DNA from: a phage
Sequence record: PZ583741.1
Reading direction: 5' to 3' (one strand)
Length of the DNA stretch: 64,000 bases
Made by a program: the position numbers and the translations under genes. Below are positions 3,056-60,289 of the stretch, in pieces (position 1 is the stretch's first letter; each line of letters opens with the position of its first letter). A model generated the notes under the pieces. It did not search any database. It was not told where the DNA came from and saw nothing but the letters and a program-made list of their open reading frames with translations.

Positions 3056-3112
3056 TGATGTAGATACTATGCACCACCACTCAATCTACGTCAATAGCCA
3101 TTGTGATAGAAT
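3056..3112 (+). promoter_or_regulatory. divergent promoter region: inverted motif pair TGATGTAGAT / ATCTACGTCA plus extended -10 TGaTAGAAT
   Basis: motif copies at 3056..3065 and 3084..3093; TAGAAT at 3107..3112 upstream of lysozyme gene. Confidence 0.4.
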
Positions 3113-6347: not shown

Positions 6348-6392
6348 TTGACGTTTCTACATCACCTAGTCAATACTTATTGACGTAGATTG
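6348..6392. promoter_or_regulatory. divergent promoter/operator region with motif pair TCTACATCA (6356..6364) and TGACGTAGATTG (6381..6392)
   Basis: strand-switch intergenic region; motif in both orientations. Confidence 0.4.
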
Positions 6393-6872: not shown

Positions 6873-7117
6873 GCGCACCACATATGCCGATGATGAACGA
6901 TGAAATGCTATTACAATGCCCGTTTTGTGGTTGTGATGACGTAAGGGTTATTGATGACGGAGAAGGTTTGCACGTTGAGTGTGGAGATTGTTTTTGCCGC
7001 ACTGACTCGTATTGCTGTGCATCCACGGCAATGAAGAAATGGAACACCAGCAACGGACACCAATACACCGCTGACGACTTCAATCAGGCAGCAGCGGAGC
7101 GTGAGCATGGACTATAA
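6869..7117 (+). CDS. zinc-ribbon protein, Lar-like (restriction-alleviation family candidate)
   Basis: CPFCG...C..C zinc ribbon; ATGA overlap with upstream gene. Confidence 0.45.
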   Translation: MSAPHMPMMNDEMLLQCPFCGCDDVRVIDDGEGLHVECGDCFCRTDSYCCASTAMKKWNTSNGHQYTADDFNQAAAEREHGL

Positions 7118-8919: not shown

Positions 8920-10332
8920 ATGATTGTCAAGATTGGCGATAAGTGGGTGGTCAAGTCGAAAGACGGCTCACAGCAATTTGGCGAATACGACACAGAAGAA
9001 GCCGCCAAAAAACGCCTCGCAGAAGTGGAGGCATTCAAGCATATGAATAATAAATTGCAGGTTAACGTCCTGACGACCATCAACTCCGCAAGCAATATCA
9101 GTGAGCAAATCATTGATGGCGACCCGCACTACGTGATTAAAAACGTCGTGCCAGTAGTTGATGATGTCGTGATGAACAACGGCCTGTATCCGGGCGAGGA
9201 AATCCGCAAGAGCTATCACGGCCTTGATGGTAAGCCTGCACCATACAATCACCCGATGATTGATGGCAAATACGTTTCCGCAAGCATGACCCGCGCCGCT
9301 AACCAGTTCAGCGTTGGCGCATGGATTGAAAACTCATCCCATGACGGCAGCAAGGTGCTTGTTGACCTGAAGGTAAACAAAGTCATCGCCGAACGCGCAG
9401 AGAAAGGTCAGGAGTTGCTTGGTCGCATTGAGGCGCTGATGAACTCCGCAGACGGCGCTGAGCCAATCCACGTATCCACTGGCTTGTTGCTCAACCGCGA
9501 AGCTGCGGAAGGCACAAGCAAAGGCAAAAAATACTCATGGATTGCACGCAATATGGAATGGGACCACCTCGCCATCCTGCCGCTGGGAGTGCCGGGAGCC
9601 GGAACGCCAGAAGATGGTGTTGGCATCTTTGCCACCAATGGCGAGCAAATCGAACGCATCACCGTAAACCTTGAGGATTCAACCGTGCCGGACGAAAGCG
9701 CTAACAAGATTAATTATAAATCGTGGCTGCATAAAGCCATCAACTACATCACCAATAAATCAGATCTGTCTTTTGAGAATATCAGTGAGCAGATTCGCCA
9801 GATTCTTAAGGCTGAAGTCGGTGAAGATGTCTGGCCTTATATCGTGGCCGTGTACGACGACCGCGTCGGATTTGAAATCAAAGGCCAGATTTTCCAGCAG
9901 TTCTACATCGTTGAAGATGATGTGGTAAAATTGGTCGGTGAGCGGGTCAAGGCTGTTTATAAGACTGAACTTGAGCCGGTAAAATCAACTGAAGGGGAAA
10001 TCTCAATGACTAACGAGGAATTACAGGCGGCATTCGCTGAAGCCCTCAAGCCGGTTCAGGAATCGTTGACAGCTGTCAACCAGAAGCTGACCGACATCGA
10101 AGCTGAAAACGTTAAGCTGAAAGAGCAATTGCAGGCGAATACCGAGCAGGAAGAAACCGCGATGCGTGCTGCTATCATCGCTGAACTGAAACTGCCAGAA
10201 TCAGCTGTGAATGCGCTGAAAGGCGAAGCACTGCGTGAAACCTATGCGCTGACCAGCAAGCCTGCCGCGCTGAAGGGTGGCTTCCAGCCGAACCACGCCG
10301 ATGACGATTTTGATATGGAGGCACCTGAATAA
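8920..10332 (+). CDS. putative scaffolding protein / prohead protease
   Basis: GGAGAG RBS; coiled-coil E/K/L-rich C-terminus; directly upstream of decoration-like and major capsid genes. Confidence 0.6.
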
Positions 10333-10802
10333 TGGCTACTATCCGTTATGGCACCATCATCGGCGGCCCGGCCCGCAAAAATGACCCGCAGATTCGTGAA
10401 GGCATCATGAAGGCAGCGTTGAAGCCGGGTGCACTGGTTGATTTCAATAATAATGACGAAATCATCGGACATGCTACCACTGACGGTCAGGGTTTCCCTT
10501 ACGTGCTTCAGCACAACTACATCGGCGGCGGTGATGTCTCTGAAGCAGTTCCGGCTAATGCCACTGGTATGGCTGTGCAGTGCGAATTTGGCGTAACTTA
10601 TCATGCGCTGGTTGCTGCATCTTCCCAGCTGAAGAAAGGTACTCCGCTGGCAAGTGATGGCACTGGTGCGCTGAAAGTTGCCGCTAATCAGGAAAATATC
10701 CTGTTCTATTCCGATGAAACTTATACCGTTGCCTCTGATGGCGCTGAGCTGGTTGCAGTTCGTCTCGCTGGCAATGCTTCCATTCCTGCTGGAGAAATGT
10801 AA
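10332..10802 (+). CDS. putative head decoration / structural protein
   Basis: 156-aa ORF between scaffold and major capsid genes. Confidence 0.45.
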
Positions 10803-11875
10803 TGGAAAAGATTATTTTTACCAAAGGCTTGGTAGCCAACTCCGCAGTAGTGGCTGACCAGTGGAAACATCTGACCATCGACCGCAAGATGTTCTGCAAT
10901 GCAGAGGCTGAGCTGGCGAAAACCTACGGTGTGAACGCCACCGCGCTGGTAACGAAAGATTACTGGCGCGACGTGGATAACGTCACCACCCGCGTTTTCC
11001 GCAACGAAGCTGGTCAGGATATGATGGCTGACCTGATGGGTATCGCGGCAAACATCAATATCGGTAAGACTGTGGCAATCAGCCGCATTGCTTCCGATGC
11101 TGGTAAGGTTGTCCGCACTCTGTCCGGTCAGGAACCGGAAGATCTGGATAAAACTCGCTACGATTACACTGGCGATGTGATTCCAATCTTCAAAACTGGC
11201 TACAGCCGCGAATGGCGTGAACTGCTGGGTATGCAATCTGAAGGCTTCGACCCGCTGCTGGACGATCAGGCTAACGTCACCTTCAACCTGCGTTCCGATA
11301 TGGCGCAGTACCTGCTGACTGGCGACCAGACTCTGAACGTGAACGGCGTGTACACTGGTTACGGTATCACCAACCACCCGAACACCATTCAGGTTAACCT
11401 GAACACCGATTCCACCGGCCTGAATATCGACCTGCAAACCGCAACGCCAGATAAAATCGTGACCTTCTTCAATCAAGATTTCCAGGCCATTCTGGATGCG
11501 CAGAACGTATTTGAGCAGGTGACTCTGTGGGTTTCCCCGGCAGTGCGCCGCAGCTTCATGCGTCCGTATTCTGATGCTGCTGGCTTTAAAGGTGGCACCG
11601 TTGAGCAGTACATCACTCAGTTCGGCAATGGTCGCATCGGTAAGATTGGCACCAACTTCCTGCTGACTGGCAACCATTTCGTTGGTTACGTTCGCAACGA
11701 CATGTACATCCGTCCGCGTGTTGCTCAACCTGTTTCCACCTACGCAGCAGCCCGTACCAACCCGCACGATAACTTTAACTTTATGGTATGGGCTGCTATG
11801 GGTCTTCAGGTGCGTAAGGATGCTACCGGCAAGTCCAGAGTGTTCAACGGCTACGGCACACAAACTCCGCTGTAA
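10802..11875 (+). CDS. major capsid protein
   Basis: 357 aa, last gene of head triad, followed by strong terminator. Confidence 0.7.
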   Translation: MEKIIFTKGLVANSAVVADQWKHLTIDRKMFCNAEAELAKTYGVNATALVTKDYWRDVDNVTTRVFRNEAGQDMMADLMGIAANINIGKTVAISRIASDAGKVVRTLSGQEPEDLDKTRYDYTGDVIPIFKTGYSREWRELLGMQSEGFDPLLDDQANVTFNLRSDMAQYLLTGDQTLNVNGVYTGYGITNHPNTIQVNLNTDSTGLNIDLQTATPDKIVTFFNQDFQAILDAQNVFEQVTLWVSPAVRRSFMRPYSDAAGFKGGTVEQYITQFGNGRIGKIGTNFLLTGNHFVGYVRNDMYIRPRVAQPVSTYAAARTNPHDNFNFMVWAAMGLQVRKDATGKSRVFNGYGTQTPL

Positions 11876-11877: not shown

Positions 11878-11905
11878 GAAAGGGGCGAAAGCCCCTTTGT
11901 GAATT
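11878..11905 (+). terminator. rho-independent terminator
   Basis: hairpin aaaggggcgaaagcccctttg. Confidence 0.6.
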
Positions 11906-11916: not shown

Positions 11917-12138
11917 ATGGCTAAGTACGAAGTCATCGCACGCGGAATCTTTGTTAAAGAGAAAGGCAAGATTCGTGAATTGCAGCTTGGCGAGGTTATC
12001 ACAGAACCTGCTGAGCATCTGATATCAAAGCTGCGCGTCATGCCTGAGCTGCCAAAGACGTTTGAGGTTGCCACGCCCGCAAAAGAAGGTGACAGCAAAC
12101 AAAAACGCCGTCGTCGCGCAGGTAGCGAAGATGAATAA
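11917..12138 (+). CDS. hypothetical protein
   Basis: 73-aa ORF, GAGGTGA RBS. Confidence 0.5.
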   Translation: MAKYEVIARGIFVKEKGKIRELQLGEVITEPAEHLISKLRVMPELPKTFEVATPAKEGDSKQKRRRRAGSEDE

Positions 12139-12140: not shown

Positions 12141-12166
12141 AAAGCCCCTAGTCAGGGGCTTTTGAT
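12141..12166. terminator. bidirectional terminator
   Basis: hairpin agcccctagtcaggggct plus T-tract. Confidence 0.6.
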
Positions 12167-12168: not shown

Positions 12169-12705
12169 CTACAGACGCATAGGCATAACAACAATTTTCG
12201 CAGTCTCGCCAGATAGCGCACTAAGACAGCAAACTGCGGCATTTGTGTTTCCATTTAGTTCAAATTTGACACCACAGAATTTATGATTAAACAGCTTCGC
12301 CACTTTCTCAATATCAACAAGGTATCCAGCATTAAAGCCAATTTCCTCTGCTGCTTTCTTCTCCTTTGGTATCACGCGATCAATATCTGGGAATCGACCA
12401 TCAATCTCTTCACAGATACCAGCGCCAACCATCGTGCCAGCTTCATCATGATACGTTGCAATTTTCGACTTAGTATCAATGATGGCGTACTCATAACGTT
12501 TTGTTGGTGACTTTCCAATCTTGATAATCACATTTTCTGTCAGCTTATTGTCATGACTGCCACCAATGAATGCGCGATGACCGTCAGTTGACGCAATGCG
12601 ACCATCATTCATAAAGCAGATTCCATTCAGGTAATATCGAACGTCGTTTCGAGCCTGAAAGATTAATGCTGATTCAAGTAATAATTTGCTGATTTTTAGT
12701 TTCAT
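12169..12705 (-). CDS. truncated DNA polymerase III beta sliding clamp homologue (mini-clamp, 178 aa)
   Basis: VRYYLNG, TDGHR, DGRFPDxxRVIP, EIGFNxxY and C-terminal VVMPMRL match DnaN pocket-forming motifs (DnaN sequence recalled from memory). Confidence 0.8.
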   Translation of the reverse strand: MKLKISKLLLESALIFQARNDVRYYLNGICFMNDGRIASTDGHRAFIGGSHDNKLTENVIIKIGKSPTKRYEYAIIDTKSKIATYHDEAGTMVGAGICEEIDGRFPDIDRVIPKEKKAAEEIGFNAGYLVDIEKVAKLFNHKFCGVKFELNGNTNAAVCCLSALSGETAKIVVMPMRL

Positions 12706-12878
12706 CACTTCACCTTAATCATGTGTTGTTTTGCAACTTTCAGGCATTCTTCAAAAATGCCACCTTTCTTAGCGCTCTGATTGCGCTTGTAATACTGAAT
12801 CGCCGCATCAACTGCCATCTGGTCGATGTCTGGCAGCTTGGCGCGAAGTTGTTTTTCTATGAATGATTCTGGAGACAT
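12705..12878 (-). CDS. small hypothetical protein (57 aa)
   Basis: manual translation; stop overlaps mini-clamp start. Confidence 0.35.
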   Translation of the reverse strand: MSPESFIEKQLRAKLPDIDQMAVDAAIQYYKRNQSAKKGGIFEECLKVAKQHMIKVK

Positions 12879-13060
12879 TTAATATCCTCATCATCGAAGT
12901 GGCGTTCATTCCATCTTTCTGCCGCATCTTCGGCACCGTACTCGCTTCTCTTTTCAGTGCCACAATAACCGCATTCAACAACAAACCTGTCCTGCCAGTT
13001 ATTATCAATGAATGCCGATGGTGTATTTCCGCAAAACGGGCATATTTTTAATTTAATCAT
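12857..13060 (-). CDS. zinc-ribbon protein, Lar-like (second copy)
   Basis: CPFCG...CGYCG zinc ribbon. Confidence 0.45.
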   Translation of the reverse strand: MIKLKICPFCGNTPSAFIDNNWQDRFVVECGYCGTEKRSEYGAEDAAERWNERHFDDEDIKCLQNHS

Positions 13061-13869
13061 CACATCTTCTCCAGAATTGCCATAACCTCGTGAATGTCAG
13101 CAACAGGGATCTGAATAAATTCCTCGTCCTCAGCAACCACATGACCAGCAGGAAGAATCACGTGATCCGCTGGCTTCAATAACTCAATCAGGCGGTCTAC
13201 TGGCTTAATCTTTTTCGACTTCAGAACCTTCGCCGTGACCTTATCCTTTCCTTGTGCTTTGGCCTCTTCGACGGCCTCGTCGATAACTTTAACCGCATCA
13301 TCGCCATGCTCACGCGTTACTGCTACGGCGTTTGCATAGCTGATTTTCCCAGCACTAATGCGAGCTTTTACTTCAGCAGGCACATCACCAAGCGACAGGT
13401 GCATTTGCACGTCAGATACTGAGCGACCTACCTTCTTGGCGATTTCTTCATTCGTCCAGCCAAAGCCTTTCAGTCTCGTGTAAGCCTTTGCGCGTTCAAA
13501 CGGGTCAAGCTGCTTACCCTGACTTGATGACACCATAAAGGCGATTTTATCCGCCTCATCGCCAGTGAAATCTTTGCACTCAATACGAACGATTGGTGCG
13601 CCTCGCTCAATGGCACGCAACGCGCCGAGATAGCGATGCTGACCATCAAGAATGCGGATTCCCTTCTCGTCTGGAATAACTGTTAATGCTGGTAATGGCT
13701 GACCTGATTCCCAGCACTGCGCGAAATACTCCACATGCTGCTCGTCTGCTTCGCGGATGTTGTATCCCGGTTCCAGATAGATTTGCCCCACTGGCACGAG
13801 ATAGGTTTTGTTAACAGCGATGCCGTTGCGAGTTTCTTTGTCTGAATAGATTTTGCTTAGTGTCTTCAT
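13060..13869 (-). CDS. ParB-like nuclease domain protein
   Basis: ILDGQHRY ParB N-terminal domain signature. Confidence 0.75.
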   Translation of the reverse strand: MKTLSKIYSDKETRNGIAVNKTYLVPVGQIYLEPGYNIREADEQHVEYFAQCWESGQPLPALTVIPDEKGIRILDGQHRYLGALRAIERGAPIVRIECKDFTGDEADKIAFMVSSSQGKQLDPFERAKAYTRLKGFGWTNEEIAKKVGRSVSDVQMHLSLGDVPAEVKARISAGKISYANAVAVTREHGDDAVKVIDEAVEEAKAQGKDKVTAKVLKSKKIKPVDRLIELLKPADHVILPAGHVVAEDEEFIQIPVADIHEVMAILEKM

Positions 13870-13870
13870 A

Positions 13871-14062
13871 TCATTCACCGCTTTCTTCTAACAATTGCTC
13901 GTAATATGCGACGTATTCATTAGCCAGATGGTACAGGCGCTCAGCAGACTTGCGTTCTGCATTGCTTAAGTCATCAATAGACTCAATGTTGCCAATTGCA
14001 TCAACGCAATCGTTGAAGTCTTGCTCTGTGTTACGAAATCGACAGTAGGACATGTTTGCCAT
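13871..14062 (-). CDS. hypothetical protein
   Basis: 63-aa ORF. Confidence 0.45.
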   Translation of the reverse strand: MANMSYCRFRNTEQDFNDCVDAIGNIESIDDLSNAERKSAERLYHLANEYVAYYEQLLEESGE

Positions 14063-14064
14063 GA

Positions 14065-14325
14065 TTATTTCTCATCACCCTGAAAAATTCCGCCAAACTC
14101 TTCTACCAGTTCATCAATACATTCGTCCGCCTCAGCGCAATTTCCAGCAGCACTAAGCAGAATATCAACCGCCTCATCATCAGGAATGTTAATTGCCGAG
14201 AAAAACTCAACAATGCATATTTTCACAACCTGATATTCACCTTCTGTCTGGCAGGATGCGAAACTGCAAGCGACCGCATCAATCAGCTTGGCTTTGTCAT
14301 CGCTTGGGTTATCAATATCAAACAT
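14065..14325 (-). CDS. small acidic protein (possible DNA mimic)
   Basis: 86 aa, strongly D/E-rich, GAGGTGA RBS. Confidence 0.5.
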   Translation of the reverse strand: MFDIDNPSDDKAKLIDAVACSFASCQTEGEYQVVKICIVEFFSAINIPDDEAVDILLSAAGNCAEADECIDELVEEFGGIFQGDEK

Positions 14326-14441
14326 TCCATCACCTCTAACATTTATTGTTGTTTCTACGTCACTAACTATAAACGCCCCATCAATCTACGTCAACAGGAA
14401 TATGCTAAAATCATGCTAATCAAACAACAGGAGATTTGAGC

Positions 14442-14561
14442 ATGGGTTCAACAAACGGTCCTTCTCGTTCACGCGCTACTGGCAATACCAAAACTGGCGG
14501 CAAAACTGGCGCAGTGAAGCCAAACGGTTCCACCCGTTCACCATCGCGCGGTAAGAAATAA
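14442..14561 (+). CDS. small basic protein (39 aa)
   Basis: manual ORF; ends taATG into next gene. Confidence 0.3.
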   Translation: MGSTNGPSRSRATGNTKTGGKTGAVKPNGSTRSPSRGKK

Positions 14562-15001
14562 TGTTCGGCGCAGACATGGCCATCATGATCATGTATGTGC
14601 TGGGTTTCGCTTGCACTGGCATGGTCGCGTTTCTGGTGTTCATTCCGGCAATGGTGATGTCTGTGTATCTTGGATGGGTGCTTGTTGATTCATTTTCCGC
14701 CGAATATCTGTATTACCTTGCGCAGTCTATGGTCTGGTTGTTCCCGGCTATTGCACTGCGCAAAAGTACAAAGATGGCGCTCTGCGTGCTGACGATGAGC
14801 CTTTACGAATGGCTGGTTGCGATAGAGTCATTCGTATGGGAATTTATCACGCCTGTAGAAACGCCACTTCATGCGCAGTACGCATTTATTATTATCGGCA
14901 TCCATCTGTTCATCCTTTCCATCACTTTTAAATGGGGCGGCGAAATTGGACATTATTCTTGGCGTGGTCGCCATTGTTTTTTCGCTGATTCAAATCTATA
15001 A
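14561..15001 (+). CDS. membrane protein
   Basis: 146 aa with multiple hydrophobic helices. Confidence 0.5.
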   Translation: MFGADMAIMIMYVLGFACTGMVAFLVFIPAMVMSVYLGWVLVDSFSAEYLYYLAQSMVWLFPAIALRKSTKMALCVLTMSLYEWLVAIESFVWEFITPVETPLHAQYAFIIIGIHLFILSITFKWGGEIGHYSWRGRHCFFADSNL

Positions 15002-15033
15002 GTGCTGGAAACATATCATCAGCGAGACGCACA

Positions 15034-15318
15034 ATGAACGGAGCACTAAGGCAGGCCGCAGAGCAGATTATAAACGGAACGGCAGGACAGGTGATTGACA
15101 AGGCTGGATACGCTTCTATTGGCGCAGGCATTAGCCTGAAAGTTGCAGAGCAAACGCCTGTCACACAATCTTATTTTGAGGCTATGATTCCACACAGCCT
15201 GACAGAGTGGGCGGCAGTGGCATCAATACTTGGCGCGCTGTCTCTGGTAATAAAAAACCTCTTTGAAATGTGGTGGACGGTACGGGAGTCGAAGAAAAAT
15301 GGCAGCACCAACACCTGA
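15034..15318 (+). CDS. hypothetical protein
   Basis: 94-aa ORF. Confidence 0.4.
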   Translation: MNGALRQAAEQIINGTAGQVIDKAGYASIGAGISLKVAEQTPVTQSYFEAMIPHSLTEWAAVASILGALSLVIKNLFEMWWTVRESKKNGSTNT

Positions 15319-19178: not shown

Positions 19179-19227
19179 AATCTACATCACCACCTCGCAG
19201 GTGTCAACACCACTGAGATGATATAAT
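19179..19227 (+). promoter_or_regulatory. tail-gene promoter: ATCTACATCA - N12 - GTCAACACC - TGaTATAAT
   Basis: extended -10 at 19219..19227. Confidence 0.45.
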
Positions 19228-32489: not shown

Positions 32490-32526
32490 TGTTAACCTCA
32501 CTCATCATCACGTAAATGAATCTACA

Positions 32527-32967
32527 TCAATCCACATCAAAAGGCAAGCCAAAATAGGTCAACACTGCAATCTTTATCTGGTCGAGTCCACACGCCACCG
32601 CAGAGAATGCACCAGCGCTGGCGCTATCGTTGAGAAACGGTATCTGTCCTGGTTGCCATTTGCTAAGCGTTGAATCATGGCGCTTCAACTCTATCGTCGC
32701 TTTATGCCACCCACCCCCGGGCGTCAGGATTATCACATCAGACACCCCTGACCTGACACCTTTCCTTGCGCGCGATGCAAGATGCTGCACTGAGTTGCTT
32801 TTGGTCTCCTGAGACGGATGGAACCACAGCACATCAGGAAACCGGTAATCCATCCACCACTTGAACGCTATCAATTCGGAATCCTCAAGCGGACACTCGC
32901 CGCGGTAACCATCATCAAAAATTAATACCTTGTCACTCAGCTCATGCTGCTTGAATCGCTTTTTCAC
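32527..32967 (-). CDS. VRR-NUC domain nuclease
   Basis: DVIILTPGGGWHKATIELKRHD...Q pattern; GTG start with AGGAGAG RBS. Confidence 0.55.
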   Translation of the reverse strand: MKKRFKQHELSDKVLIFDDGYRGECPLEDSELIAFKWWMDYRFPDVLWFHPSQETKSNSVQHLASRARKGVRSGVSDVIILTPGGGWHKATIELKRHDSTLSKWQPGQIPFLNDSASAGAFSAVACGLDQIKIAVLTYFGLPFDVD

Positions 32968-39544: not shown

Positions 39545-39574
39545 TTGACGTAGAATTACAACTGATGTAGATTG
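39545..39574. promoter_or_regulatory. early promoter/operator with motif copies TTGACGTAGAAT and TGATGTAGATTG
   Basis: A-module motif at strand-switch region. Confidence 0.35.
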
Positions 39575-45014: not shown

Positions 45015-45120
45015 CAATCTACATCACAAGCATATCCACGTCAACATTTATTGTTGTTGATAAATCTGCATCACCACACTTGACCAATCTACACCGAGCG
45101 CATAGTATAATCTACATCAG
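45015..45120. promoter_or_regulatory. cluster of at least four ATCTACATCA-type motif copies with -10-like TATAAT
   Basis: copies at 45015, 45063, 45086 and 45108. Confidence 0.4.
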
Positions 45121-46222: not shown

Positions 46223-47461
<1,239 letters not shown>

Positions 47462-47516
47462 GTTATCTTACAAGGCATCTCGTGGGGTGCCTCAGTAAGA
47501 CAACCGGAGATAGAGC

Positions 47517-47702
47517 ATGAAAACCAAAATGATTCACAAGTCAGAAGTAAAAATTGGCGACACGGTAATTCACTGCGGTGAGATGAAGACGGTTGGCATG
47601 GAAACATTTGGCAAGGATGAGTTTATGGGACTCCTACTGTGGGGTGATAGCTATCGCTGCGGCTACAAGATGGTTGAGGTTGTAACTGAGGTTAAGTTTT
47701 GA
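47517..47702 (+). CDS. hypothetical early protein
   Basis: 61 aa, GGAGA RBS. Confidence 0.5.
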   Translation: MKTKMIHKSEVKIGDTVIHCGEMKTVGMETFGKDEFMGLLLWGDSYRCGYKMVEVVTEVKF

Positions 47703-47746
47703 ATAGCACGAATTGCTAAACCTTCCGCAAGGCCGTTTGATATAGT
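47703..47746 (+). promoter_or_regulatory. B-module promoter cassette 1: ATAGCACGAATTGCTAAA - N20 - TATAGT
   Basis: palindrome TAGCA-N5-TGCTA; -10 hexamer 38 bp after motif start. Confidence 0.5.
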
Positions 47747-47966
47747 GGTCTTGTTGAAGCAAAACAATCAATCATGGGGTTACACAAATGCAAGTTTATA
47801 AATCACCTGGCGGCGCTCGTTACGTTGTTGTTGATGGCATGGTGTACTGCAAGCCGCTAACCGGATTCACATTTCGCTCGTCAATGACGGTGGATCGATA
47901 CCTTTAGTTGATAGGTTGGGGATTTCTTAGGTTTGAAAAGGTAATCAAGCCTATAATGACCGTCAA

Positions 47967-48010
47967 ATAGCACGAATTGTTAAAATGGGATTCATCCTGA
48001 ATGGTATGAT
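47967..48010 (+). promoter_or_regulatory. B-module promoter cassette 2 (variant TTGTTA; -10 TATGAT)
   Basis: same 38-bp spacing. Confidence 0.4.
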
Positions 48011-48162
48011 CCACACATCAACCACAAGAATGGAAGTTAAGTGACGATATACGAACATAAATTCAGCAGTATGGGTATTGATATGCTCCTGCACTATGTA
48101 GACGAAAAATACGCAAATCTCATGCTTAATACGCATGGCGGCACAATAACGAGGATTGAGAT

Positions 48163-48426
48163 ATGAGTAAGTACAACCGTGAGATTATCGGCCTGGATGG
48201 GGAAGTAACCACAGTGGATGTATATCGAGTCCTGGATGCATTCCAGGTAACAGACCAAGCTATACAGCACGCAATCAAGAAGATGCTGTGCACTGGACTT
48301 AGAGGGCATAAGGACTATCTTACTGACATTGAAGACTCCATTGAATCACTGCAAAAAGCCAAGGAACTTTACGATCAGCGCAAGAGTTACGAGCGGCGAT
48401 ACAATTTATCTTTTACAGATAAATAG
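48163..48426 (+). CDS. hypothetical early protein
   Basis: 87 aa, GAGGA RBS; stop TAG lies inside next motif. Confidence 0.5.
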   Translation: MSKYNREIIGLDGEVTTVDVYRVLDAFQVTDQAIQHAIKKMLCTGLRGHKDYLTDIEDSIESLQKAKELYDQRKSYERRYNLSFTDK

Positions 48427-48466
48427 CACGAATTGCTAAACCCGCTCAGAAGGGTTTTGTTATAGT
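48423..48466 (+). promoter_or_regulatory. B-module promoter cassette 3
   Basis: motif plus TGtTATAGT extended -10. Confidence 0.5.
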
Positions 48467-48495
48467 TAGTTCACACCAAACGAGAGGAAATAAAG

Positions 48496-48714
48496 ATGAT
48501 TACTATTAACCTGTCAGATAAACAAGCAGCAGAACTCAAGTCCATGCTTTCAATCTTTGAGAAGCCAAATGACCAGGTAATTGCCAAAGAGGTAGTGGCT
48601 CAGATTAACAACCAGCAATTCGACGTAAGTGACTTCGAGTCATCGCGCCAGTACGAGGCAATGAGTGTTAATGCTGCATACCTGACTAACTGGGATAATG
48701 CGACTAAGAAATGA
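48496..48714 (+). CDS. hypothetical early protein
   Basis: 72 aa, GAGAGGAAA RBS. Confidence 0.5.
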   Translation: MITINLSDKQAAELKSMLSIFEKPNDQVIAKEVVAQINNQQFDVSDFESSRQYEAMSVNAAYLTNWDNATKK

Positions 48715-48860
48715 TTTTATACATACATGAGTACTGGACGGGGAAGTTTAACACAGTTCGACATGTCCGTGTTTACGAAGATTATGTAAATGCATTCAAT
48801 CAGCAGAAGGTTCTTGGTGGCACCATCAAGGTTTGCGATGTTGTGGATGAGATTTACTAA
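48711..48860 (+). CDS. small hypothetical protein (49 aa)
   Basis: manual ORF, ATGA overlap. Confidence 0.35.
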   Translation: MILYIHEYWTGKFNTVRHVRVYEDYVNAFNQQKVLGGTIKVCDVVDEIY

Positions 48861-48904
48861 ATAGCACGAATTGCTAAAGCAGTCTTGGGGTAATTTGTTA
48901 TAGT
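48861..48904 (+). promoter_or_regulatory. B-module promoter cassette 4
   Basis: motif plus TGtTATAGT. Confidence 0.5.
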
Positions 48905-48934
48905 TACCACATCAAAACTAACGAGGTTATAAGA

Positions 48935-49039
48935 ATGAGTGAATTAATTAAAACTATCGCGGACTATCCATTTGCTTCGCTTTTTCTTGCTATTGCAATA
49001 TATGAAATTGTAAAGATTATTGTCAAATGTATTAAATAG
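48935..49039 (+). CDS. small membrane peptide (34 aa)
   Basis: manual ORF, GAGG RBS. Confidence 0.3.
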   Translation: MSELIKTIADYPFASLFLAIAIYEIVKIIVKCIK

Positions 49040-49079
49040 CACGAATTTCTAAAACATTATCGGGGTATCTTACTATAGT
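49036..49079 (+). promoter_or_regulatory. B-module promoter cassette 5 (variant TTTCTA)
   Basis: motif plus TATAGT at fixed spacing. Confidence 0.45.
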
Positions 49080-49109
49080 TACCCCATCAAAACGAAACAG
49101 GAAGCAGAA

Positions 49110-49289
49110 ATGAAATTTCAACAAGGCGAGCCAAAGCTACAAGTCAACCACTTCGATGGTTACGCAACATTCATCATAGCCCAGGCTTGCGGGATGCGAG
49201 ATGAACCTCACGTTCACACCATTCACTTAACAGAAGAACAGGCACGAGAACTGGCTTACGAAATTCTTGAGCAATTGAACCGAATTTAA
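49110..49289 (+). CDS. hypothetical protein (59 aa)
   Basis: GGAAG RBS. Confidence 0.4.
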   Translation: MKFQQGEPKLQVNHFDGYATFIIAQACGMRDEPHVHTIHLTEEQARELAYEILEQLNRI

Positions 49290-49338
49290 CGCGCATAAAA
49301 CGCATTCTAACGAACGATAATTTAAGTAAGGCGATTCT

Positions 49339-49497
49339 ATGATTAAGGTTGTTTTTATTGCTGATGATGGTGTTTATCCATTATTATCTAATGGTGATGT
49401 TATTTACGTGCAAGACATGGGTTGCGCATATATCTATACAGATGAGTTTGGTGACTCTTATTATATTGAGAAATGGGAAGTTGAGGAGATTGCATGA
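49339..49497 (+). CDS. small protein, paralog 1 (52 aa)
   Basis: MIKVVFIADDG...; similar to next ORF. Confidence 0.4.
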   Translation: MIKVVFIADDGVYPLLSNGDVIYVQDMGCAYIYTDEFGDSYYIEKWEVEEIA

Positions 49498-49655
49498 TTA
49501 AGCTTGTTTATGTGGGTGAGAGTGATTATGTGGCGCTCATTCAGAGTGGTGATGTGTTCTTCGCAGAGATGAGTGATGATGGTAGTTTCTACATCGTAAA
49601 GAACAAGAATGGCGAAGATATCTACCTTTCAAAAGATGAGGTCATCATTTACTAA
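49494..49655 (+). CDS. small protein, paralog 2 (53 aa)
   Basis: MIKLVYVGESD...; tandem duplicate. Confidence 0.4.
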   Translation: MIKLVYVGESDYVALIQSGDVFFAEMSDDGSFYIVKNKNGEDIYLSKDEVIIY

Positions 49656-49780
49656 TGGATAACTACGAATCACCAGTAGAGTGGTGTAAGCGAATGCAGG
49701 ACGAAGCTAAAACTGGTGAAGAGGCGATGGCTTACTACGAACTGGCGCAAATTTGGATGGAACGTGAGAAGAAAGAATGA
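49655..49780 (+). CDS. small hypothetical protein (41 aa)
   Basis: manual ORF with overlapping start/stop. Confidence 0.3.
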   Translation: MDNYESPVEWCKRMQDEAKTGEEAMAYYELAQIWMEREKKE

Positions 49781-49920
49781 GCTTCACTGAATACGTTATC
49801 GCATGCGAGAGACTGGTCTTTGACATGAAGACTTTTCACTGGTTCATCATCAAGGATTTAATTAAGCCTTACAAGCAAGGCGTTACGCCAGAGGCTTTTG
49901 TTAAGTCATTCTACAAATAG
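49777..49920 (+). CDS. small hypothetical protein (47 aa)
   Basis: manual ORF; stop TAG inside next motif. Confidence 0.35.
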   Translation: MSFTEYVIACERLVFDMKTFHWFIIKDLIKPYKQGVTPEAFVKSFYK

Positions 49921-49960
49921 CACGAATTGCTAAACGCAGTCGCCATGGATGGCATATAAT
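49917..49960 (+). promoter_or_regulatory. B-module promoter cassette 6 (-10 TATAAT)
   Basis: motif plus consensus -10 at fixed spacing. Confidence 0.5.
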
Positions 49961-49993
49961 TACCACATCAACACAACGAAGAGAGATATAATA

Positions 49994-50140
49994 ATGAAAA
50001 ATGTATTTGGCATCAGCTATGAAGAAGAGTTTGTTGATTGCCTTATTTACCTGAATGAGATCTACGGAGATGAGTTTGAATGTGATGGTGATTCACTTCA
50101 TGCAAAAATAGAACTTGAAACATTTGGGGAGGTTGTCTAA
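49994..50140 (+). CDS. hypothetical protein (48 aa)
   Basis: ATG at 49994 in ORF 49949..50140. Confidence 0.4.
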   Translation: MKNVFGISYEEEFVDCLIYLNEIYGDEFECDGDSLHAKIELETFGEVV

Positions 50141-50382
50141 TGATGTTTGGATTATCAGAAGCACACTTCAACGCAGTTAAACGCCAGGCAGCAAAGTTGA
50201 ACGAAGAGTACAGCAAGTTATCGCCAAAACAGCGCAAGGACGATAAGCAGGTTGCGGCATTGATTTCAAAGATGTGGGAGCCAGTTTTCACAATCATTAG
50301 TCGAGACCGCTTTGTTTGGACCAGTGGGTATCTTAAGGGTAGAGTAGGTCACGACGAGAATGGGAATAGTCTTTATGAGTAA
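50140..50382 (+). CDS. hypothetical protein
   Basis: 80 aa, GGGAGG RBS. Confidence 0.5.
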   Translation: MMFGLSEAHFNAVKRQAAKLNEEYSKLSPKQRKDDKQVAALISKMWEPVFTIISRDRFVWTSGYLKGRVGHDENGNSLYE

Positions 50383-50557
50383 TTGCAATAAGCATAGGTA
50401 TAAGTACGCTTTCAGTTCAAAACTTACAGCCCACGACATAAAACTACTTAATCTAGGTTACTTCAAATCCAGCAAAAATGAAAATCATGTCGGGGATTAT
50501 AGATCATTTTATGAGTGCGTTAATTGCGGCGAGATGATTGCGATGGGGGTATTATGA
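50360..50557 (+). CDS. hypothetical protein (zinc-finger-like)
   Basis: 65-aa ORF; start uncertain (50360 or 50375). Confidence 0.35.
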   Translation: MGIVFMSNCNKHRYKYAFSSKLTAHDIKLLNLGYFKSSKNENHVGDYRSFYECVNCGEMIAMGVL

Positions 50558-50640
50558 GTGAGTTAACAATCTGGTTTATCGCAGGTCTGATTACTTGGGC
50601 TTACTTTTTAATCGTTTAGATTGAGCTTGTTAAAAAGAGC

Positions 50641-50669
50641 TTGCATCACTGACAGGAATTATCTAATAT
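50641..50669 (+). promoter_or_regulatory. sigma70-like promoter (TTGCAT - 17 bp - TAATAT) upstream of tRNA
   Basis: hexamers and spacing read from sequence. Confidence 0.4.
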
Positions 50670-50838
50670 TAACCACGTAGACAAACGAGGCCACCAGGTG
50701 GCAACGGCGCACGGAGCGCACTACACGGCAAGTCCGTAGCTCATTAAGTAGCGTATGCGGCATTAAGACCTAGCGCAAATAGGCAGATTAATCGGCTGTA
50801 TCAGGCAGCCCCGGAGCCGTAACCGGGACTCATTCAAA

Positions 50839-50916
50839 GCTCTGCTAGCTCAATTGGACAGAAGCAACGACCTTCTAAGTCGCAGGTTACTGGTTCGAAT
50901 CCAGTGCGGAGCGCCA
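50839..50916 (+). tRNA. tRNA-Arg (anticodon UCU), CCA encoded
   Basis: 7-bp acceptor stem, GG in D-loop, anticodon loop CUUCUAA, T-loop TTCGAAT, 3' GCCA. Confidence 0.75.
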
Positions 50917-50931
50917 ATAAAGGAGTTCATT

Positions 50932-51114
50932 ATGTGGGATGTGAAGTTGTCAATTCGCTTAATGGGCCGCTCGTGCAAGAATTGCACTCAAGAATACATC
51001 GCGTCAGTTGCCGCAATCAGCGCTGAGGATGCGGTAGCGAAAGTAAAGGAGATGTCAGGCGCTGACCCTGACACCCACAAATTCCTGGTAGCTTACGTTC
51101 GTGAGCAAAAGTAA
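50932..51114 (+). CDS. hypothetical protein (60 aa)
   Basis: AAGGAG RBS; track ORF 50854 overlaps the tRNA so start moved. Confidence 0.45.
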   Translation: MWDVKLSIRLMGRSCKNCTQEYIASVAAISAEDAVAKVKEMSGADPDTHKFLVAYVREQK

Positions 51115-51154
51115 AAAGTGTTATACCCTCGTTAAGTTTCGTTTCTCTCGTTGT

Positions 51155-51184
51155 TTTTAGCCCTCGCTTGAGGGCTTTTTTTCG
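51155..51184 (+). terminator. rho-independent terminator
   Basis: hairpin agccctcgcttgagggct plus T6. Confidence 0.6.
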
Positions 51185-51225
51185 TCTGCAATATGCTATA
51201 ATCTGGAATCAACAAAGGAGGATTT

Positions 51226-51732
51226 ATGAGCAAAGCAGCATTAAAGATGGGTGAGGGAAATTTCAAGGCGCTCTACAACAAGAAGTATGGCGACATTGCT
51301 ATGGTGGCAATCAACCGCAAGTACACGCCTGAGGAAGTTTTCGATTTCGCCGTTAGATACTTCTCCTGGGCTGAGAGCGAGGCAATTAAGGCTATTGAGA
51401 CGGCTGCTTTCCAGGGTGTGGTTAGCGAGAGCCTCGTACACAAGCCTAGAGTATTCACCTTAACTGGGCTGGCGCTCTTTATGGGTGTCAATATCAATAG
51501 ATTCGCTCGCTGGCGTACTGAGGCTGGATACTCTGATGTGATGGAATTCATTGATAACGTTATTTACGAGCAGAAGTACCAGCTTGGTGTCGCAGGCATC
51601 ATCAACTCTACCATCGTTGGTAAAGAGCTAGGAATTGATAAGCCGCAGGAGATTAAGATTAGCAACAACTCCACAGCTAACGATGTTGACAGTATGAAGG
51701 AAGCACTTGAGTCCGTGATCAGTAAGCTATAG
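51226..51732 (+). CDS. terminase small subunit
   Basis: 168 aa, HTH-like TLTGLALFMGVNINRFARW; AAGGAGG RBS; upstream of large terminase. Confidence 0.6.
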   Translation: MSKAALKMGEGNFKALYNKKYGDIAMVAINRKYTPEEVFDFAVRYFSWAESEAIKAIETAAFQGVVSESLVHKPRVFTLTGLALFMGVNINRFARWRTEAGYSDVMEFIDNVIYEQKYQLGVAGIINSTIVGKELGIDKPQEIKISNNSTANDVDSMKEALESVISKL

Positions 51733-51800
51733 CACTTATTGTTAAAAGAATGGGCCCAATCAATGAGATAATTGGGTCACTAACTTAACGAGGTGATGAT

Positions 51801-52313
51801 ATGAATTGGCATGATTATTTTGAATACAAAGATGGGAAGATTTACTGGAAAGATTACGATAGCGAGAAGCTTGGAAGGAGAAGGATACAGCGAAGATTCA
51901 TAGGGAAAGAGGTTGGCGGCATTGATAAAAGCCTAGGGTATGTTAGGGTAAACATGCCTGGTAAAAAATATTGGGTTCATAGAATAATCTGGGAAATGCA
52001 TAACGGAGCAATACCAGAAGGTATGCAAATTGACCATATAAATCATGTTAGAAATGATAACAGGATAGAAAACATTAGGTTAGTTACAATTCAGGAAAAT
52101 AGAAAGAATCAGTCAATAAATTCTAGGAATAAGACCGGGGTTACCGGAGTCTGCATAGTATCTAGGACTGGCAAGTATGTAGCTCAAATAAAAAAGGATG
52201 GAGAGAATATTCACTTGGGATTCTTTGATAATATTCACGACGCATCGATTGTCAGGGCGAGGGCTGAATTTATTCTTGGGTATCATAAAAACCACGGGAG
52301 GAAAGATGAGTGA
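51801..52313 (+). CDS. HNH homing endonuclease with AP2 domain, between terminase subunits
   Basis: HRIIWEMHNGAIPEGMQIDHINH...DNRIENIRLV; C-terminal GYHKNHG. Confidence 0.85.
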   Translation: MNWHDYFEYKDGKIYWKDYDSEKLGRRRIQRRFIGKEVGGIDKSLGYVRVNMPGKKYWVHRIIWEMHNGAIPEGMQIDHINHVRNDNRIENIRLVTIQENRKNQSINSRNKTGVTGVCIVSRTGKYVAQIKKDGENIHLGFFDNIHDASIVRARAEFILGYHKNHGRKDE

Positions 52314-53877
52314 TTTGATAGTTTGGGATGAGTTAAATCATGCGCAGAAGATGGCTATCAAGGCCATCTCTGAGCATAGTTTCGAGGGGTTCTTGCGGTG
52401 TTTCTTCCAGATAACTCAGGGCGAGAGATTCAAAATGAATTGGCATGCGAAGTACCTTTGCCGCGTCATTGATGAGATTCTTGAGGGTAAGAGAAAGGAT
52501 ACCATCATAAACGTATCTCCGGGATCTGCCAAAACCGAACTGTTTAGCATCCACTTCCCTGTATATAGCATGATTAAGATTAAGAAGGTTAGGAATCTTA
52601 GTTTGTCGTTCTCTGACTCATTGGTTAAGCGCAACTCCAAGCGCGTAAGGGATTTGATAAAATCAAAGGAGTTCCAGGAGCTTTGGCCCTGCACCTTTGG
52701 AACGTGCAGGGATGACGAGATTCAGGTTCTTGATGAGAATGGCAAAGTTAGGTTTGAGTCTATATCTAAGGCGATGGCTGGTCAGGTGACAGGAAGCAGG
52801 GGCGGCTACATGACTGACGATTATAGTGGTTGCATAATGCTGGATGACCCACTAAAGCCTGATGACGCGTTAAGTAATGTAAGAAGAGAGGCTGTCAATA
52901 TGCTTCTCAAGAACACAATCCGTTCACGTCGAGCTAGCTCAGTAAAGGGAAAAGAAACGCCAATACTTTCCGTGCAGCAAAGACTTCATGTTCTGGACAC
53001 TAGCCACTTCATGGAGTCAGGGCAAATGGGCATAAAGTTCGACGTAGTGAAAGTTCCAGCCATAGTCACAGAGGATTACGCCGACACGCTTCCTGATTGG
53101 ATCAAACAACAATTTATTGATGATGTTCTTTCATCACCATTTGTAGAGCGGGATGGAGTTAAGTATTACAGCTACTTTCCGGCAAAGGAGTCAATAGAAG
53201 ACCTGATGGCTATGTGGGATGCTGACCCGTACACGTTCCTTAGTCAGTACCAGCAGGAACCTGTAGCTCTGGGCGGCAATCTTATTAATGTGGATTGGTT
53301 CCAGCGCCTTAGTGATACATTCATACCTCCAGCCAAGTATGATTATCGATTCATCACATGCGATACCGCGATGACCACTAAAAGTTACAGCGACTTCTCT
53401 GTTCTTCAGTTGTGGGGCTATAAAGATGCTAAGATTTACCTTATTGATCAGCGCAGGGGTAAATGGGAGGCCCCAGAGTTGGAGGCTGAACTTCTGGACT
53501 TTGAGAAGAAATCAAGGGCAACCAGTCAGTCAGATGGTATCCTCAGAAAGATTATTATCGAGAAGAAAGCGTCTGGTATCGGCCTGATTCAATCAGCTGG
53601 CAGGGTTATGCGAACACCGATAGAGCCATACGTACCGGATAATGACAAGCTAACCAGGGTGATGAGTGCACTACCACAGATTAAGGCTGGTAACGTAGTT
53701 CTTCCAGAGTCATCGCCGTGGCTAAACGGATTGCTCACTGAGGTTGCGGCTTTTACGGCAGATGACTCGCATAAGCACGACGACCAAATTGACTGTCTAA
53801 CAATGGCGGTAAACCTTGTACTTAACATCGCTGATGATCCTAAGGCGAGACTGATGCGCATAGCGGGAATGAAATAG
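52306..53877 (+). CDS. terminase large subunit
   Basis: Walker A-like VSPGSAKTE; C-terminal nuclease Asp residues; overlaps HNH stop by 8 nt. Confidence 0.8.
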   Translation: MSDLIVWDELNHAQKMAIKAISEHSFEGFLRCFFQITQGERFKMNWHAKYLCRVIDEILEGKRKDTIINVSPGSAKTELFSIHFPVYSMIKIKKVRNLSLSFSDSLVKRNSKRVRDLIKSKEFQELWPCTFGTCRDDEIQVLDENGKVRFESISKAMAGQVTGSRGGYMTDDYSGCIMLDDPLKPDDALSNVRREAVNMLLKNTIRSRRASSVKGKETPILSVQQRLHVLDTSHFMESGQMGIKFDVVKVPAIVTEDYADTLPDWIKQQFIDDVLSSPFVERDGVKYYSYFPAKESIEDLMAMWDADPYTFLSQYQQEPVALGGNLINVDWFQRLSDTFIPPAKYDYRFITCDTAMTTKSYSDFSVLQLWGYKDAKIYLIDQRRGKWEAPELEAELLDFEKKSRATSQSDGILRKIIIEKKASGIGLIQSAGRVMRTPIEPYVPDNDKLTRVMSALPQIKAGNVVLPESSPWLNGLLTEVAAFTADDSHKHDDQIDCLTMAVNLVLNIADDPKARLMRIAGMK

Positions 53878-53917
53878 CACAAATTGCTAAACACTAAAGC
53901 CACGGATGGCGTATAGT
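53874..53917 (+). promoter_or_regulatory. B-module promoter cassette 7 (variant ATAGCACAAATTGCTAAA)
   Basis: terminase stop TAG is inside motif; TATAGT at fixed spacing. Confidence 0.45.
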
Positions 53918-53946
53918 TACTTCACACAAAAGAGAGGAGAAGAAAG

Positions 53947-54279
53947 ATGAAGGCAGTATTTAAAGGTTATAAAAAAGCTGGTCGTTTGGAATTTACTATT
54001 GGTAAGATTTATGAGTTATCAGAAACACGCGGAGTGGGTGGATATATGGTGGTGACTGATGACGGTGGCTTTCGGGCAATATTTATCCCAGACAACATCT
54101 ATGATTTCGAGGTGTTGATCCCAGATGAATTTATCGGTAAAGAAAAGCAATTCAAATATTACATCAATGGCGAAGCTGTTTCTAAAGTCAAGTTCGATGA
54201 TACACTGTTATGCGTCAAGGAATTTAAATCTGATGGCATTGATACATCATCAATCAAGTTCGAAGTAAAATTCGAGTAA
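53947..54279 (+). CDS. hypothetical protein
   Basis: 110 aa, GAGAGGAG RBS, own promoter and terminator. Confidence 0.5.
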   Translation: MKAVFKGYKKAGRLEFTIGKIYELSETRGVGGYMVVTDDGGFRAIFIPDNIYDFEVLIPDEFIGKEKQFKYYINGEAVSKVKFDDTLLCVKEFKSDGIDTSSIKFEVKFE

Positions 54280-54298
54280 CCACAAAAGCTATGATAAA

Positions 54299-54325
54299 CT
54301 AGCCCCTAAATGGGGCTTTTTTATT
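54299..54325 (+). terminator. rho-independent terminator
   Basis: hairpin agcccctaaatggggct plus T6. Confidence 0.6.
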
Positions 54326-54335
54326 GGAGAAAAAC

Positions 54336-55562: not shown

Positions 55563-55631
55563 GAAGCAATGGCGACGACAGAGGAACCTAATGAATGATG
55601 AATTTGATGGCTTTTAGTGAGGAGAATTGGG

Positions 55632-56717: not shown

Positions 56718-56729
56718 GGAGTTATAAAC

Positions 56730-57239: not shown

Positions 57240-57253
57240 TAGTTAAGACTAAA

Positions 57254-57280
57254 CTAACCCGCTTCGGCGGGTTTTTTATT
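57254..57280 (+). terminator. rho-independent terminator (UUCG loop)
   Basis: aacccgcttcggcgggtt plus T6. Confidence 0.6.
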
Positions 57281-57362
57281 GCCTATCATCTCATCATTGC
57301 GTGGTCTAAAAACTCGTGTATAATGAACACGTAGACACCTAACTGAAAAGGAACAATAAAGA

Positions 57363-58304: not shown

Positions 58305-58307
58305 TAA

Positions 58308-60274: not shown

Positions 60275-60289
60275 CAAAAGGAAAAATAC

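Follow-up and report, generated by a model that had tools for sequence, protein, structure and literature searches.

A block of six reverse-strand genes at positions 12169-14325 was analyzed in a phage DNA stretch of 64,000 nucleotides (sequence record PZ583741.1), the whole of which is called the window here. The block is probably an early or middle operon transcribed by the host RNA polymerase in a polymerase-less siphophage resembling Skatevirus and Segzyvirus, and it combines a conserved ParB backbone with plug-in slots for exchangeable genes. As a genomic feature, the block is ordinary: it is an early operon and hot spot within late genes, already present in about 200 GenBank phages and poorly annotated. 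Early reverse-strand operons and accessory hot spots scattered among the late genes are found in many small siphophages. The one component of the block that deserves experimental attention is a mini-clamp, which retains the cleft of the beta clamp DnaN.

Gene content, conservation and variable slots

The initial annotation had described six reverse-oriented genes interrupting the structural genes, and the six minus-strand open reading frames (ORFs) were confirmed at exactly the same positions. The first gene of the operon encodes a strongly acidic protein of 86 amino acids (14065-14325, phrog_14587). It is followed by genes for a 63-amino-acid acidic protein (13871-14062, phrog_8760), a ParB/KorB-like DNA-binding protein, so named by its domains (13060-13878, 272 amino acids), a Lar-family zinc ribbon (12857-13063, 68 amino acids), a 57-amino-acid basic protein (12705-12878, phrog_4439) and a mini-clamp with DnaN homology (12169-12708, 179 amino acids, phrog_3007). 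From the mini-clamp end, neighboring genes overlapped by 4, 22, 4 and 8 nt, and the remaining pair was spaced 2 nt apart, as expected of one translationally coupled operon. Each of the six proteins matched a PHROG family (all E <= 3e-14), and homologues were present in related phages for five of the six genes, the Lar-like gene being the exception. These results indicated that the six ORFs were real genes and not chance reading frames.

The window was found to consist of two joined phage genomes. The first 47,276 bases formed one complete Skatevirus/Segzyvirus-like genome with a 131-bp terminal overlap, bases 1-131 recurring at 47277-47406. The remainder (47407-64000) was part of a different, Dhillonvirus-like phage, from terminase to tape measure, and was 96% identical to Escherichia phage vB_Ec-G8. 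Over the query region, the first genome was ~92% identical to Salmonella phage LPSTLL (Segzyvirus) and ~90% identical to Escherichia phage Bas77. The BASEL study places this phage cluster as Skatevirus and relatives, and its related Skatevirus phages are plaque-forming small siphoviruses as isolated there (PMC11990801). The annotation of LPSTLL includes a replicative helicase, a primase, exonuclease VIII, a recombinase and SSB, and no DNA polymerase; the absences of ParA, integrase and repressor referred to below were read from the same annotation.

The region was present in 195 phage records (megablast). In addition, 79 IMG/VR loci were recruited via the ParB protein, and every gene of the region was scored in them by tblastn and hidden Markov model (HMM) searches; the constant presence of ParB in this set partly reflects the recruitment. 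The block occupied the same position in every Skatevirus-like relative sampled. The ParB gene showed 97-99% amino acid identity in the close clade, compared with 94-97% for the capsid, and 79-82% in the Klebsiella-type clade. The 57-residue gene followed ParB in most loci, even where the clamp was absent, and the mini-clamp was found in 54 of the 79 loci (HMM search).

The varying parts of the block could be assigned to three slots. Slot A, between the leader and ParB, contains the two acidic-protein genes in the window. Homologues of the 86-residue protein with at least 72% identity occurred in 13 of the 79 loci, plus one weak match of 26%, and the 63-residue gene occurred in 20 (tblastn); elsewhere, unrelated proteins (phrog_2260, phrog_1273 and others) occupied the slot. 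Slot B, between ParB and the 57-residue gene, contains the Lar gene of the window, which none of the 79 loci shares and which is specific to this genome among its relatives. Elsewhere, the slot is occupied by C5 cytosine methyltransferases (Bas77 too), N6/N4 methyltransferases, an EndoVII fusion, HNH nucleases or small uncharacterised proteins, and in approximately 14 of 64 relatives (~22%) a C5 or N6/N4 methyltransferase lay directly downstream of ParB. Slot C, between the clamp and the capsid, held HNH genes, a gp49/66-family protein and others. In 34 relatives, chiefly from the Klebsiella-type clade, slot C also contained a gene of 276-334 amino acids without a Pfam match, which is oriented like the structural genes and is absent from the window. 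In the proposed mechanism, accessory genes would swap at these three recombination slots, with junctions at the start codon after the leader and at the gene overlaps, and the cargo here would comprise the Lar-family restriction-alleviation zinc ribbon and the two small acidic proteins. The locus is an accessory-gene hot spot. It also offers a clean example of cassette exchange at a fixed promoter-leader "landing pad", which is useful for mining anti-restriction and host-interaction genes.

An alternative explanation is an accessory island that was inserted horizontally and serves mainly in host takeover or in anti-defence, above all in alleviating restriction. This is the interpretation of the initial annotation taken in its strict sense, and its description of the content as accessory-rich was well founded, with a Lar-like gene unique to this phage and methyltransferases, HNH or EndoVII nucleases and unknown genes in the same slots of relatives. 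The highly variable slot content, the methyltransferases in the slot of the Lar gene, the two curated cut-offs passed by that gene, the small and acidic nature of the first two products and the PHROG label "anti-restriction" on the 86-residue protein are all in line with such an island. The comparison of related phages that had been proposed revealed variation of the internal cassettes; the whole block, however, was not polymorphic in the 195 records and the ParB-recruited loci. Every sampled Skatevirus-like relative had it at this locus, and ParB outranked the capsid in conservation. No flanking repeats or mobility genes (integrase, transposase) were found at the block, and its GC content of 0.44-0.47 fell inside the range of the phage (0.39-0.52). 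Same-locus conservation with only the inner cassettes varying argues for a conserved operon with plug-in sites rather than an inserted island, which we consider unlikely. Three 22-nt direct repeats located within the ParB gene and the acidic genes translate into acidic peptides that resemble each other (DDAV, DEAD and DEAV), and these repeats are probably compositional.

The assumed anti-defence role was further examined at the level of the small proteins. The Lar-like protein exceeded the Pfam gathering score of PF14354 (40.2 versus 28.6 bits) and the cut-off of TIGR03655 (44.3 versus 39.6), and its translation contained the zinc ribbon cysteines C8-x2-C11 ... C31-x2-C34. Its nearest phage homologues were 46-54% identical and came from an Enterobacter phage fragment and from Pectobacterium and Cronobacter myophages. 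A second, conserved Lar-family paralogue (6908-7054, plus strand) is 35% identical to the island copy; unlike the latter, it appears to match the Lar-like gp52 of LPSTLL at the equivalent position. The 86-residue protein has an isoelectric point (pI) of 4.05, with 21 Asp and Glu versus 4 Lys and Arg residues, and contains 5 Cys. Searches of Pfam, NCBIfam, PADLOC and PDB profiles gave no significant match for it and revealed no homology to a known anti-restriction or anti-defence family, and the PADLOC scan of the six block proteins gave zero matches. Its family is tiny, with 17 clusters among 5.8 billion proteins, all on contigs of at most ~49 kb. The "anti-restriction" role of this protein comes from the phrog_14587 label only and is unsupported. 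The BASEL study reports a marked sensitivity of the Skatevirus phages Bas77-81 to Old and to restriction-modification systems (PMC11990801), and Bas77 carries the acidic 86-residue gene, which argues against a strong, broad anti-restriction effect of the conserved parts. Collectively, these results indicated that the idea of an anti-defence cassette had been overstated.

Promoter, leader and terminators

The operon is preceded by a sigma-70-type promoter on the minus strand (TTGACG-17-TATAGT, 14394-14366) that agrees with the consensus at 10 of 12 positions. Its -35 element, TTGACG (14394-14389), sits within the motif TTGACGTAGATTGA (14394-14381) and is separated by a 17-nt spacer from the -10 element, TATAGT (14371-14366). 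A conserved leader with a Shine-Dalgarno sequence, TGACGTAGAAACAACAATAAATGTTAGAGGTGATGGA (14326-14362, minus strand), stands before the ATG, as seen in the sequence and in relatives. It was observed that the -35, the -10 and the leader of ~35 nt were essentially invariant in 65 related loci, that the spacer varied and that the first gene differed by locus; the leader was unchanged whatever gene followed, with few exceptions among the displayed sequences of relatives. Invariant hexamers combined with a varying spacer argue for a functional sigma-70 promoter, and the fixed leader before a changing first gene suggested a fixed recombination junction at the start codon. Transcription would start near 14359, run through the six coupled genes and stop at a hairpin at 12141-12162, as judged from the sequence. 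On the opposite strand, an extended -10 element, TGcTAAAAT (14403-14411), was read 9 nt from the island -35. It precedes the genes for the 39-residue, membrane and neck proteins, appears as TGaTAAAAT in the Klebsiella-type clade and may drive a divergent transcript.

The motif TGAYGTAGA occurred 12 times in the window versus 0.82 expected occurrences, and 0 of 100 shuffles reached 12. All 12 sites fell in the first phage genome, and the motif was noted at 3056-3093, 6356-6389, 14354-14393, 19181-19189, 32521-32540, 39546-39571 and 45018-45119. Every site whose context was read lay in a promoter or leader region upstream of a gene cluster, and about eight promoter regions, all non-structural, carried the motif. 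The counterpart sites of LPSTLL are found upstream of the exonuclease VIII-recombinase-SSB operon, the EndoVII-helicase operon, the early small-gene cluster, several short reverse-strand units and the island. At the island promoter there are two copies (14385-14393 and 14354-14362), the second of which covers about -3 to +6 of the predicted start site. The motif is shared with recombination, replication and small-gene operons, which suggests that the block is switched together with the DNA-metabolism genes; we infer from the sequence that it is expressed with them, early or middle in infection. With copies at -35 and +1, such co-switching would probably proceed via a phage regulator binding the element. 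In several promoters, the motif itself provides the -35 (TTGACG) or -10 (TAGATT) hexamer, and TGAYGTAGA may be an operator for some regulator or simply a shared promoter core. The motif is often extended to TTGAYGTAGATTGA and occurs in pairs, either direct or inverted. Another promoter, TTGACA-17-TAGATT, was observed on the minus strand at 17486-17458.

A host-type promoter of the family found at the recombination and replication operons is consistent with the earlier proposal that the block encodes something other than morphogenesis proteins, and the same holds for the domains recognized in it, namely a beta-clamp fragment, a ParB/KorB helix-turn-helix (HTH) and a Lar zinc ribbon. The boundaries had been described as bidirectional terminators and a motif-bearing promoter region. 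The promoter region with its motif was confirmed, whereas only one bidirectional terminator was detected, and the 5' boundary of the block is a divergent promoter region instead. The terminator, AAAGCCCCTAGTCAGGGGCTTT (12141-12162), gave the best terminator match of the region by consensus scan and sequence reading. It has a 9-bp stem with 5 GC pairs, a 4-nt loop, an upstream A-run and a downstream T-run, and it is predicted to end the convergent plus-strand transcript and the island operon alike. A hairpin of the form AAAGCCCC..GGGGCTTT was present somewhere in 58 of the 79 related loci. Just past the capsid stop codon, a second GC-rich hairpin, AAAGGGGC-GAAA-GCCCCTTT (11879-11898, plus strand), was read from the sequence; it is terminator-like with a weak T tail and was not called by the consensus scan. 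Four near-identical GC-rich hairpins of the form AAGCCC(C)...(G)GGGCTT were noted in the phage (1288-1308, 4908-4926, 12141-12162 and 18262-18281). They lie at convergent junctions, are predicted to be bidirectional terminators and split the genome into many short alternating-strand units.

The ParB-like protein and the mini-clamp

In the ParB-like protein, an N-terminal domain of the ParB/Srx type, which carries a DGQHR motif, is followed by a central HTH and an uncharacterised C-terminal region. Both HTH_ParB (PF17762, 44.3 versus 22.6 bits, E 2e-11) and KorB (PF08535, 26.1 versus 22.3 bits, E 9e-6) scored above their gathering scores, and residues 42-205 aligned with Spo0J (1vz0) at E 8e-13. 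In this alignment the cytidine triphosphate (CTP) motifs were degenerate, with GQHRYL instead of GERRYR and SSSQG instead of ENLQR. PF02195 was not reported at E <= 0.1, and TIGR00180 scored 39.4, below its cut-off of 58.45. The DGQHR motif resembles that of DndB-type proteins, weakly (TIGR03187, E 0.0075). The previous name "ParB-like nuclease" is unsupported in its second part: the protein belongs to the ParB/KorB family of HTH proteins, and nothing indicates a nuclease. Together with its 57-residue partner, it would most likely act on the phage DNA as an organizer, a regulator or a cofactor of a DNA-modifying enzyme, rather than in partition.

A plasmid-type ParB-parS partition module, maintaining a plasmid-prophage or carrier state, would account for the database names "ParB-like partition protein" and "Spo0J" and for the similarity to Spo0J and Noc. 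It is nevertheless highly improbable. No ParA was found in the block or in the annotation of LPSTLL, which also contains no integrase or repressor, and the protein has no LG(R/K)GL-type ParA-binding motif. The TIGR00180 score stays below its cut-off, no repeated parS-like palindrome was detected, and the related BASEL phages are plaque-forming. Two unrelated perfect 16-bp palindromes were observed in the scaffold-like and capsid genes (GTTGACAGCTGTCAAC at 10065-10080 and TTCAGGTTAACCTGAA at 11388-11403). About 0.7 such palindromes are expected by chance and each was exact in 23 of the 79 relatives; as ParB sites they were rejected, being probably chance. GCTAAA repeats at 14404-14420 resembled a KorB operator and were rejected as such, since the Klebsiella-type clade does not conserve them.

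Another explanation is a KorB-like transcriptional switch: the ParB-like protein, bound to the TGAYGTAGA promoters or close to them, would repress the early operons, its own among them, and contribute to activating the divergent extended -10 promoter of the neck genes. KorB is a sliding-clamp repressor (PMC11790492), and the KorB and HTH_ParB scores given above favor such a switch. The promoter of the block also has motif copies at -35 and +1, about eight non-structural promoters share the motif, and the upstream copy overlies the expected -35 position of the divergent TGcTAAAAT promoter. However, the CTP motifs are degenerate, the motif lacks the palindromic symmetry of parS and of the KorB operator OB, and where it supplies the -35 or -10 hexamer it may be promoter sequence and not operator. 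The phage has other candidate regulators as well, such as the winged-HTH protein in LPSTLL. We regard a KorB-like switch as unlikely.

A further explanation assigns to the ParB-like protein, perhaps together with the mini-clamp, the role of a post-replicative DNA-modification cofactor that would load or activate the methyltransferase of the adjacent slot on double-stranded phage DNA. ParB folds are frequently fused to methyltransferases in phages (PMC12704722), and a phage ParB-like protein was shown experimentally to activate a thymine dioxygenase on double-stranded DNA (PMC13229309). In view of these two papers, ParB may plausibly be linked to DNA modification, and the methyltransferases directly downstream of ParB in ~22% of relatives suggested the same. 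Mini-clamp contexts were examined in twelve further phage records, and the association found there is suggestive rather than statistical. A DNA methyltransferase immediately adjoined the mini-clamp in IME279 and Skarpretter and was one or a few genes off in R19R, TC7, SBP9 and BcepC6B, and the mini-clamp of EP23 lay beside an Nmad5 modification-associated domain. In Bcep43, a DNA modification methylase gene was located at the edge of the stretch examined. Pseudomonas phage TC7 carries, besides its C5 methyltransferase, a ParB homologue (32% identity, E 2e-28) ~1.2 kb upstream of the mini-clamp. On the other hand, the block contains no methyltransferase in this genome or in most relatives, and their ParB proteins are nevertheless highly identical. 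The protein here has a full HTH, in contrast to the HTH-less dioxygenase activators, no clamp-binding motif was found in the neighboring methyltransferases, and the neighborhoods could reflect a shared location in a replication module. A modification cofactor therefore appears somewhat less probable than a KorB-like switch.

The mini-clamp aligned to E. coli DnaN residues 136-288 and 313-366 with E values of 1.5e-12 to 5e-12 (phmmer against PDB). DnaN (PDB 1mmi/2pol) comprises three domains and 366 amino acids, and the homology of the 179-residue mini-clamp to it is clear in both sequence and fold. The mini-clamp corresponds approximately to domain II, with the second helix lost, and to one half of domain III, collapsed to a single beta-alpha-beta-beta-beta unit; domain I is absent. 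AlphaFold2 predicted a compact monomer with only two long helices (pLDDT 97, pTM 0.91). An alignment of 25 sequences (>=70% identity) had given a pLDDT of 45, and the value of 97 was reached by adding 50%-cluster representatives. A Foldseek search with the model returned beta clamps as the top PDB matches throughout (best TMq 0.60-0.67, probability 1.00), indicating a clamp fold. The best viral structure matches were models of ~180-210 amino acids from Pantoea and Serratia phages, followed by weaker ones from Burkholderia and Rhodococcus phages. The curated clamp models were not reached, with 37.3 bits versus 137.65 for TIGR00663 and 17.1 and 13.9 versus 27 for the Pfam models DNA_pol3_beta_2 and DNA_pol3_beta_3. 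The label "RusA-like Holliday junction resolvase", which phrog_3007 bears in many RefSeq phage records, is wrong and apparently propagated; the family consists of beta-clamp fragments.

With domain I, half of domain III and one inner helix gone, a DNA-encircling ring is unlikely. I272 and L273 of DnaN, which we take to be dimer-interface residues of domain III, read K and L in the mini-clamp alignment, so that half of the pair is kept. A tetrameric ring, in which four copies of three beta-alpha-beta-beta-beta units would give 12, was dropped in view of the two long helices of the model and the lost second helix of domain II. The residues R152, Y154, L155, T172, G174, H175, P242, R246, N320, Y323, M362, P363 and R365 (DnaN numbering) were retained. 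In DnaN, they line the cleft that binds clamp-binding motifs. In an alignment of 124 members, most of the top-conserved columns corresponded to R152, Y154, L155, G157, T172, G174, H175, P242, Y323, M362, P363 and R365; P242 was present in 124 of 124 sequences, G174 in 123, R152 in 121, Y154 in 119 and M362 in 118. An exhaustive search for the family yielded 1,907 cluster representatives at E <= 0.001. Among the best 150 representatives, 131 were 160-220 amino acids long, and most aligned over nearly their full length.

In the conserved-operon reading, the mini-clamp, present in about three quarters of relatives and having lost its ring-forming parts, would most likely engage host or phage proteins with clamp-binding motifs, such as Pol III alpha, as an adaptor or decoy. 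More broadly, it is possible, though doubtful at present, that mini-clamps are a large uncharacterised phage class that discarded the clamp ring and kept the client-binding cleft. In a polymerase-less phage, such a protein would be a soluble adaptor or decoy capturing host proteins with clamp-binding motifs (Pol III alpha, Hda, MutS/L and translesion polymerases), thereby redirecting replication to phage DNA or disarming host DNA surveillance, and it may cooperate with the DNA-bound ParB-like protein and with the methyltransferases near which it recurs in unrelated phages. If true, phages would thereby have a previously unrecognized route of access to the host replisome hub. The family is widespread, its conservation pattern predicts binding of clamp-binding motifs, and the related BASEL phages Bas77-81 are available for experiments. 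A literature search for studies of phage mini-clamps found nothing useful.

Several points weigh against this interpretation of the operon and its mini-clamp. The argument for a functional cleft derives from conservation and a predicted model. A canonical clamp-binding motif was not found in the island proteins or in the neighboring methyltransferases, including those beside the mini-clamps of other phages. The only candidate in the island proteins, QMHLSL at residues 158-163 of the ParB-like protein, lies inside a conserved HTH helix aligned to "RLLQLP" of Spo0J and was attributed to chance. Approximately 17 complete related loci truly have no mini-clamp, indicating that it is not essential to the backbone. 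No binding site of the ParB-like protein was identified, neither as a repeated palindrome nor in the non-palindromic TGAYGTAGA. The timing was deduced from the promoter type alone, and a literature search for transcriptomes of these phages yielded nothing useful. Finally, three of the six block proteins offer no functional clue.

Flanking genes and comparison with known systems

The block is one of several reverse units in this genome and lies antisense between the capsid and neck genes. On the upstream side are the genes for a head decoration protein and the major capsid/virion protein (10332-11875), and the downstream flank encodes a DUF7370 protein, a Neck1/tail-completion protein and the major tail protein. 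The non-structural interruption was found to be broader than the six genes, since plus-strand genes on both sides (11917-12138 and 14442-15318) belong to it too. The former encodes a 73-residue basic protein (phrog_2138), the last plus-strand gene before the block, with homologues in most relatives. The latter comprises genes for proteins of 39, 146 and 94 amino acids (ORF list, PHROG), of which the 146-residue one is a multi-pass membrane protein with the PHROG label "lipoprotein" and the 94-residue one is a membrane protein. The 39- and 146-residue proteins are missing in the Klebsiella-type clade. The 39-residue protein (14442-14561, plus strand) is Gly/Ser/Thr-rich, with a pI of 12, 9 Lys and Arg and zero acidic residues; its gene comes first in the divergent neck-side transcript and is conserved in the Salmonella/E. 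coli clade only. A reversed position inside head or tail gene clusters was also observed for the mini-clamps of EP23, VIPECOTPH05A, Bcep43 and Shewanella phage 1/41. For annotation, phrog_3007 should be corrected to a beta-clamp remnant, and nothing found here supports "partition protein", "nuclease" or "anti-restriction protein" as labels.

Compared with Lar/RalR of the Rac prophage, the Lar-like protein shares the family cut-offs and the four-cysteine ribbon, but it is not a RalR equivalog (19 bits versus a cut-off of 113). The 86-residue protein shares with DNA mimics of the Ocr/ArdA type a strong negative charge, which is necessary but not sufficient. The ParB-like protein has the N-terminal ParB/Srx-type domain, the ParB HTH and the KorB domain in common with the ParB/KorB/Noc family, and differs from it in its degenerate CTP motifs and in that no ParA and no parS were found.

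Herpesvirus UL42 is a monomeric processivity factor with two full PCNA-like domains that partners a virus-encoded polymerase. The mini-clamp may be a functional analogue of UL42-type factors: both are viral proteins with a clamp fold that form no closed ring and would keep the groove for polymerase peptides. Unlike UL42, the mini-clamp belongs to a phage without a polymerase.

Known ParB-methyltransferase associations (PMC12704722; PMC13229309) likewise place a ParB-fold protein beside DNA-modifying enzymes, whereas here the protein is separate and HTH-bearing, with no fusion. In the hot spots or hyperplastic regions described for phages (PMC12704722; PMC13229309), conserved flanks and signals surround swap-in cassettes rich in methyltransferases, homing nucleases and small unknown proteins, as was observed for the present block. 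In contrast to those regions, the hot spot of this phage lies within a conserved operon, antisense inside the late structural region.

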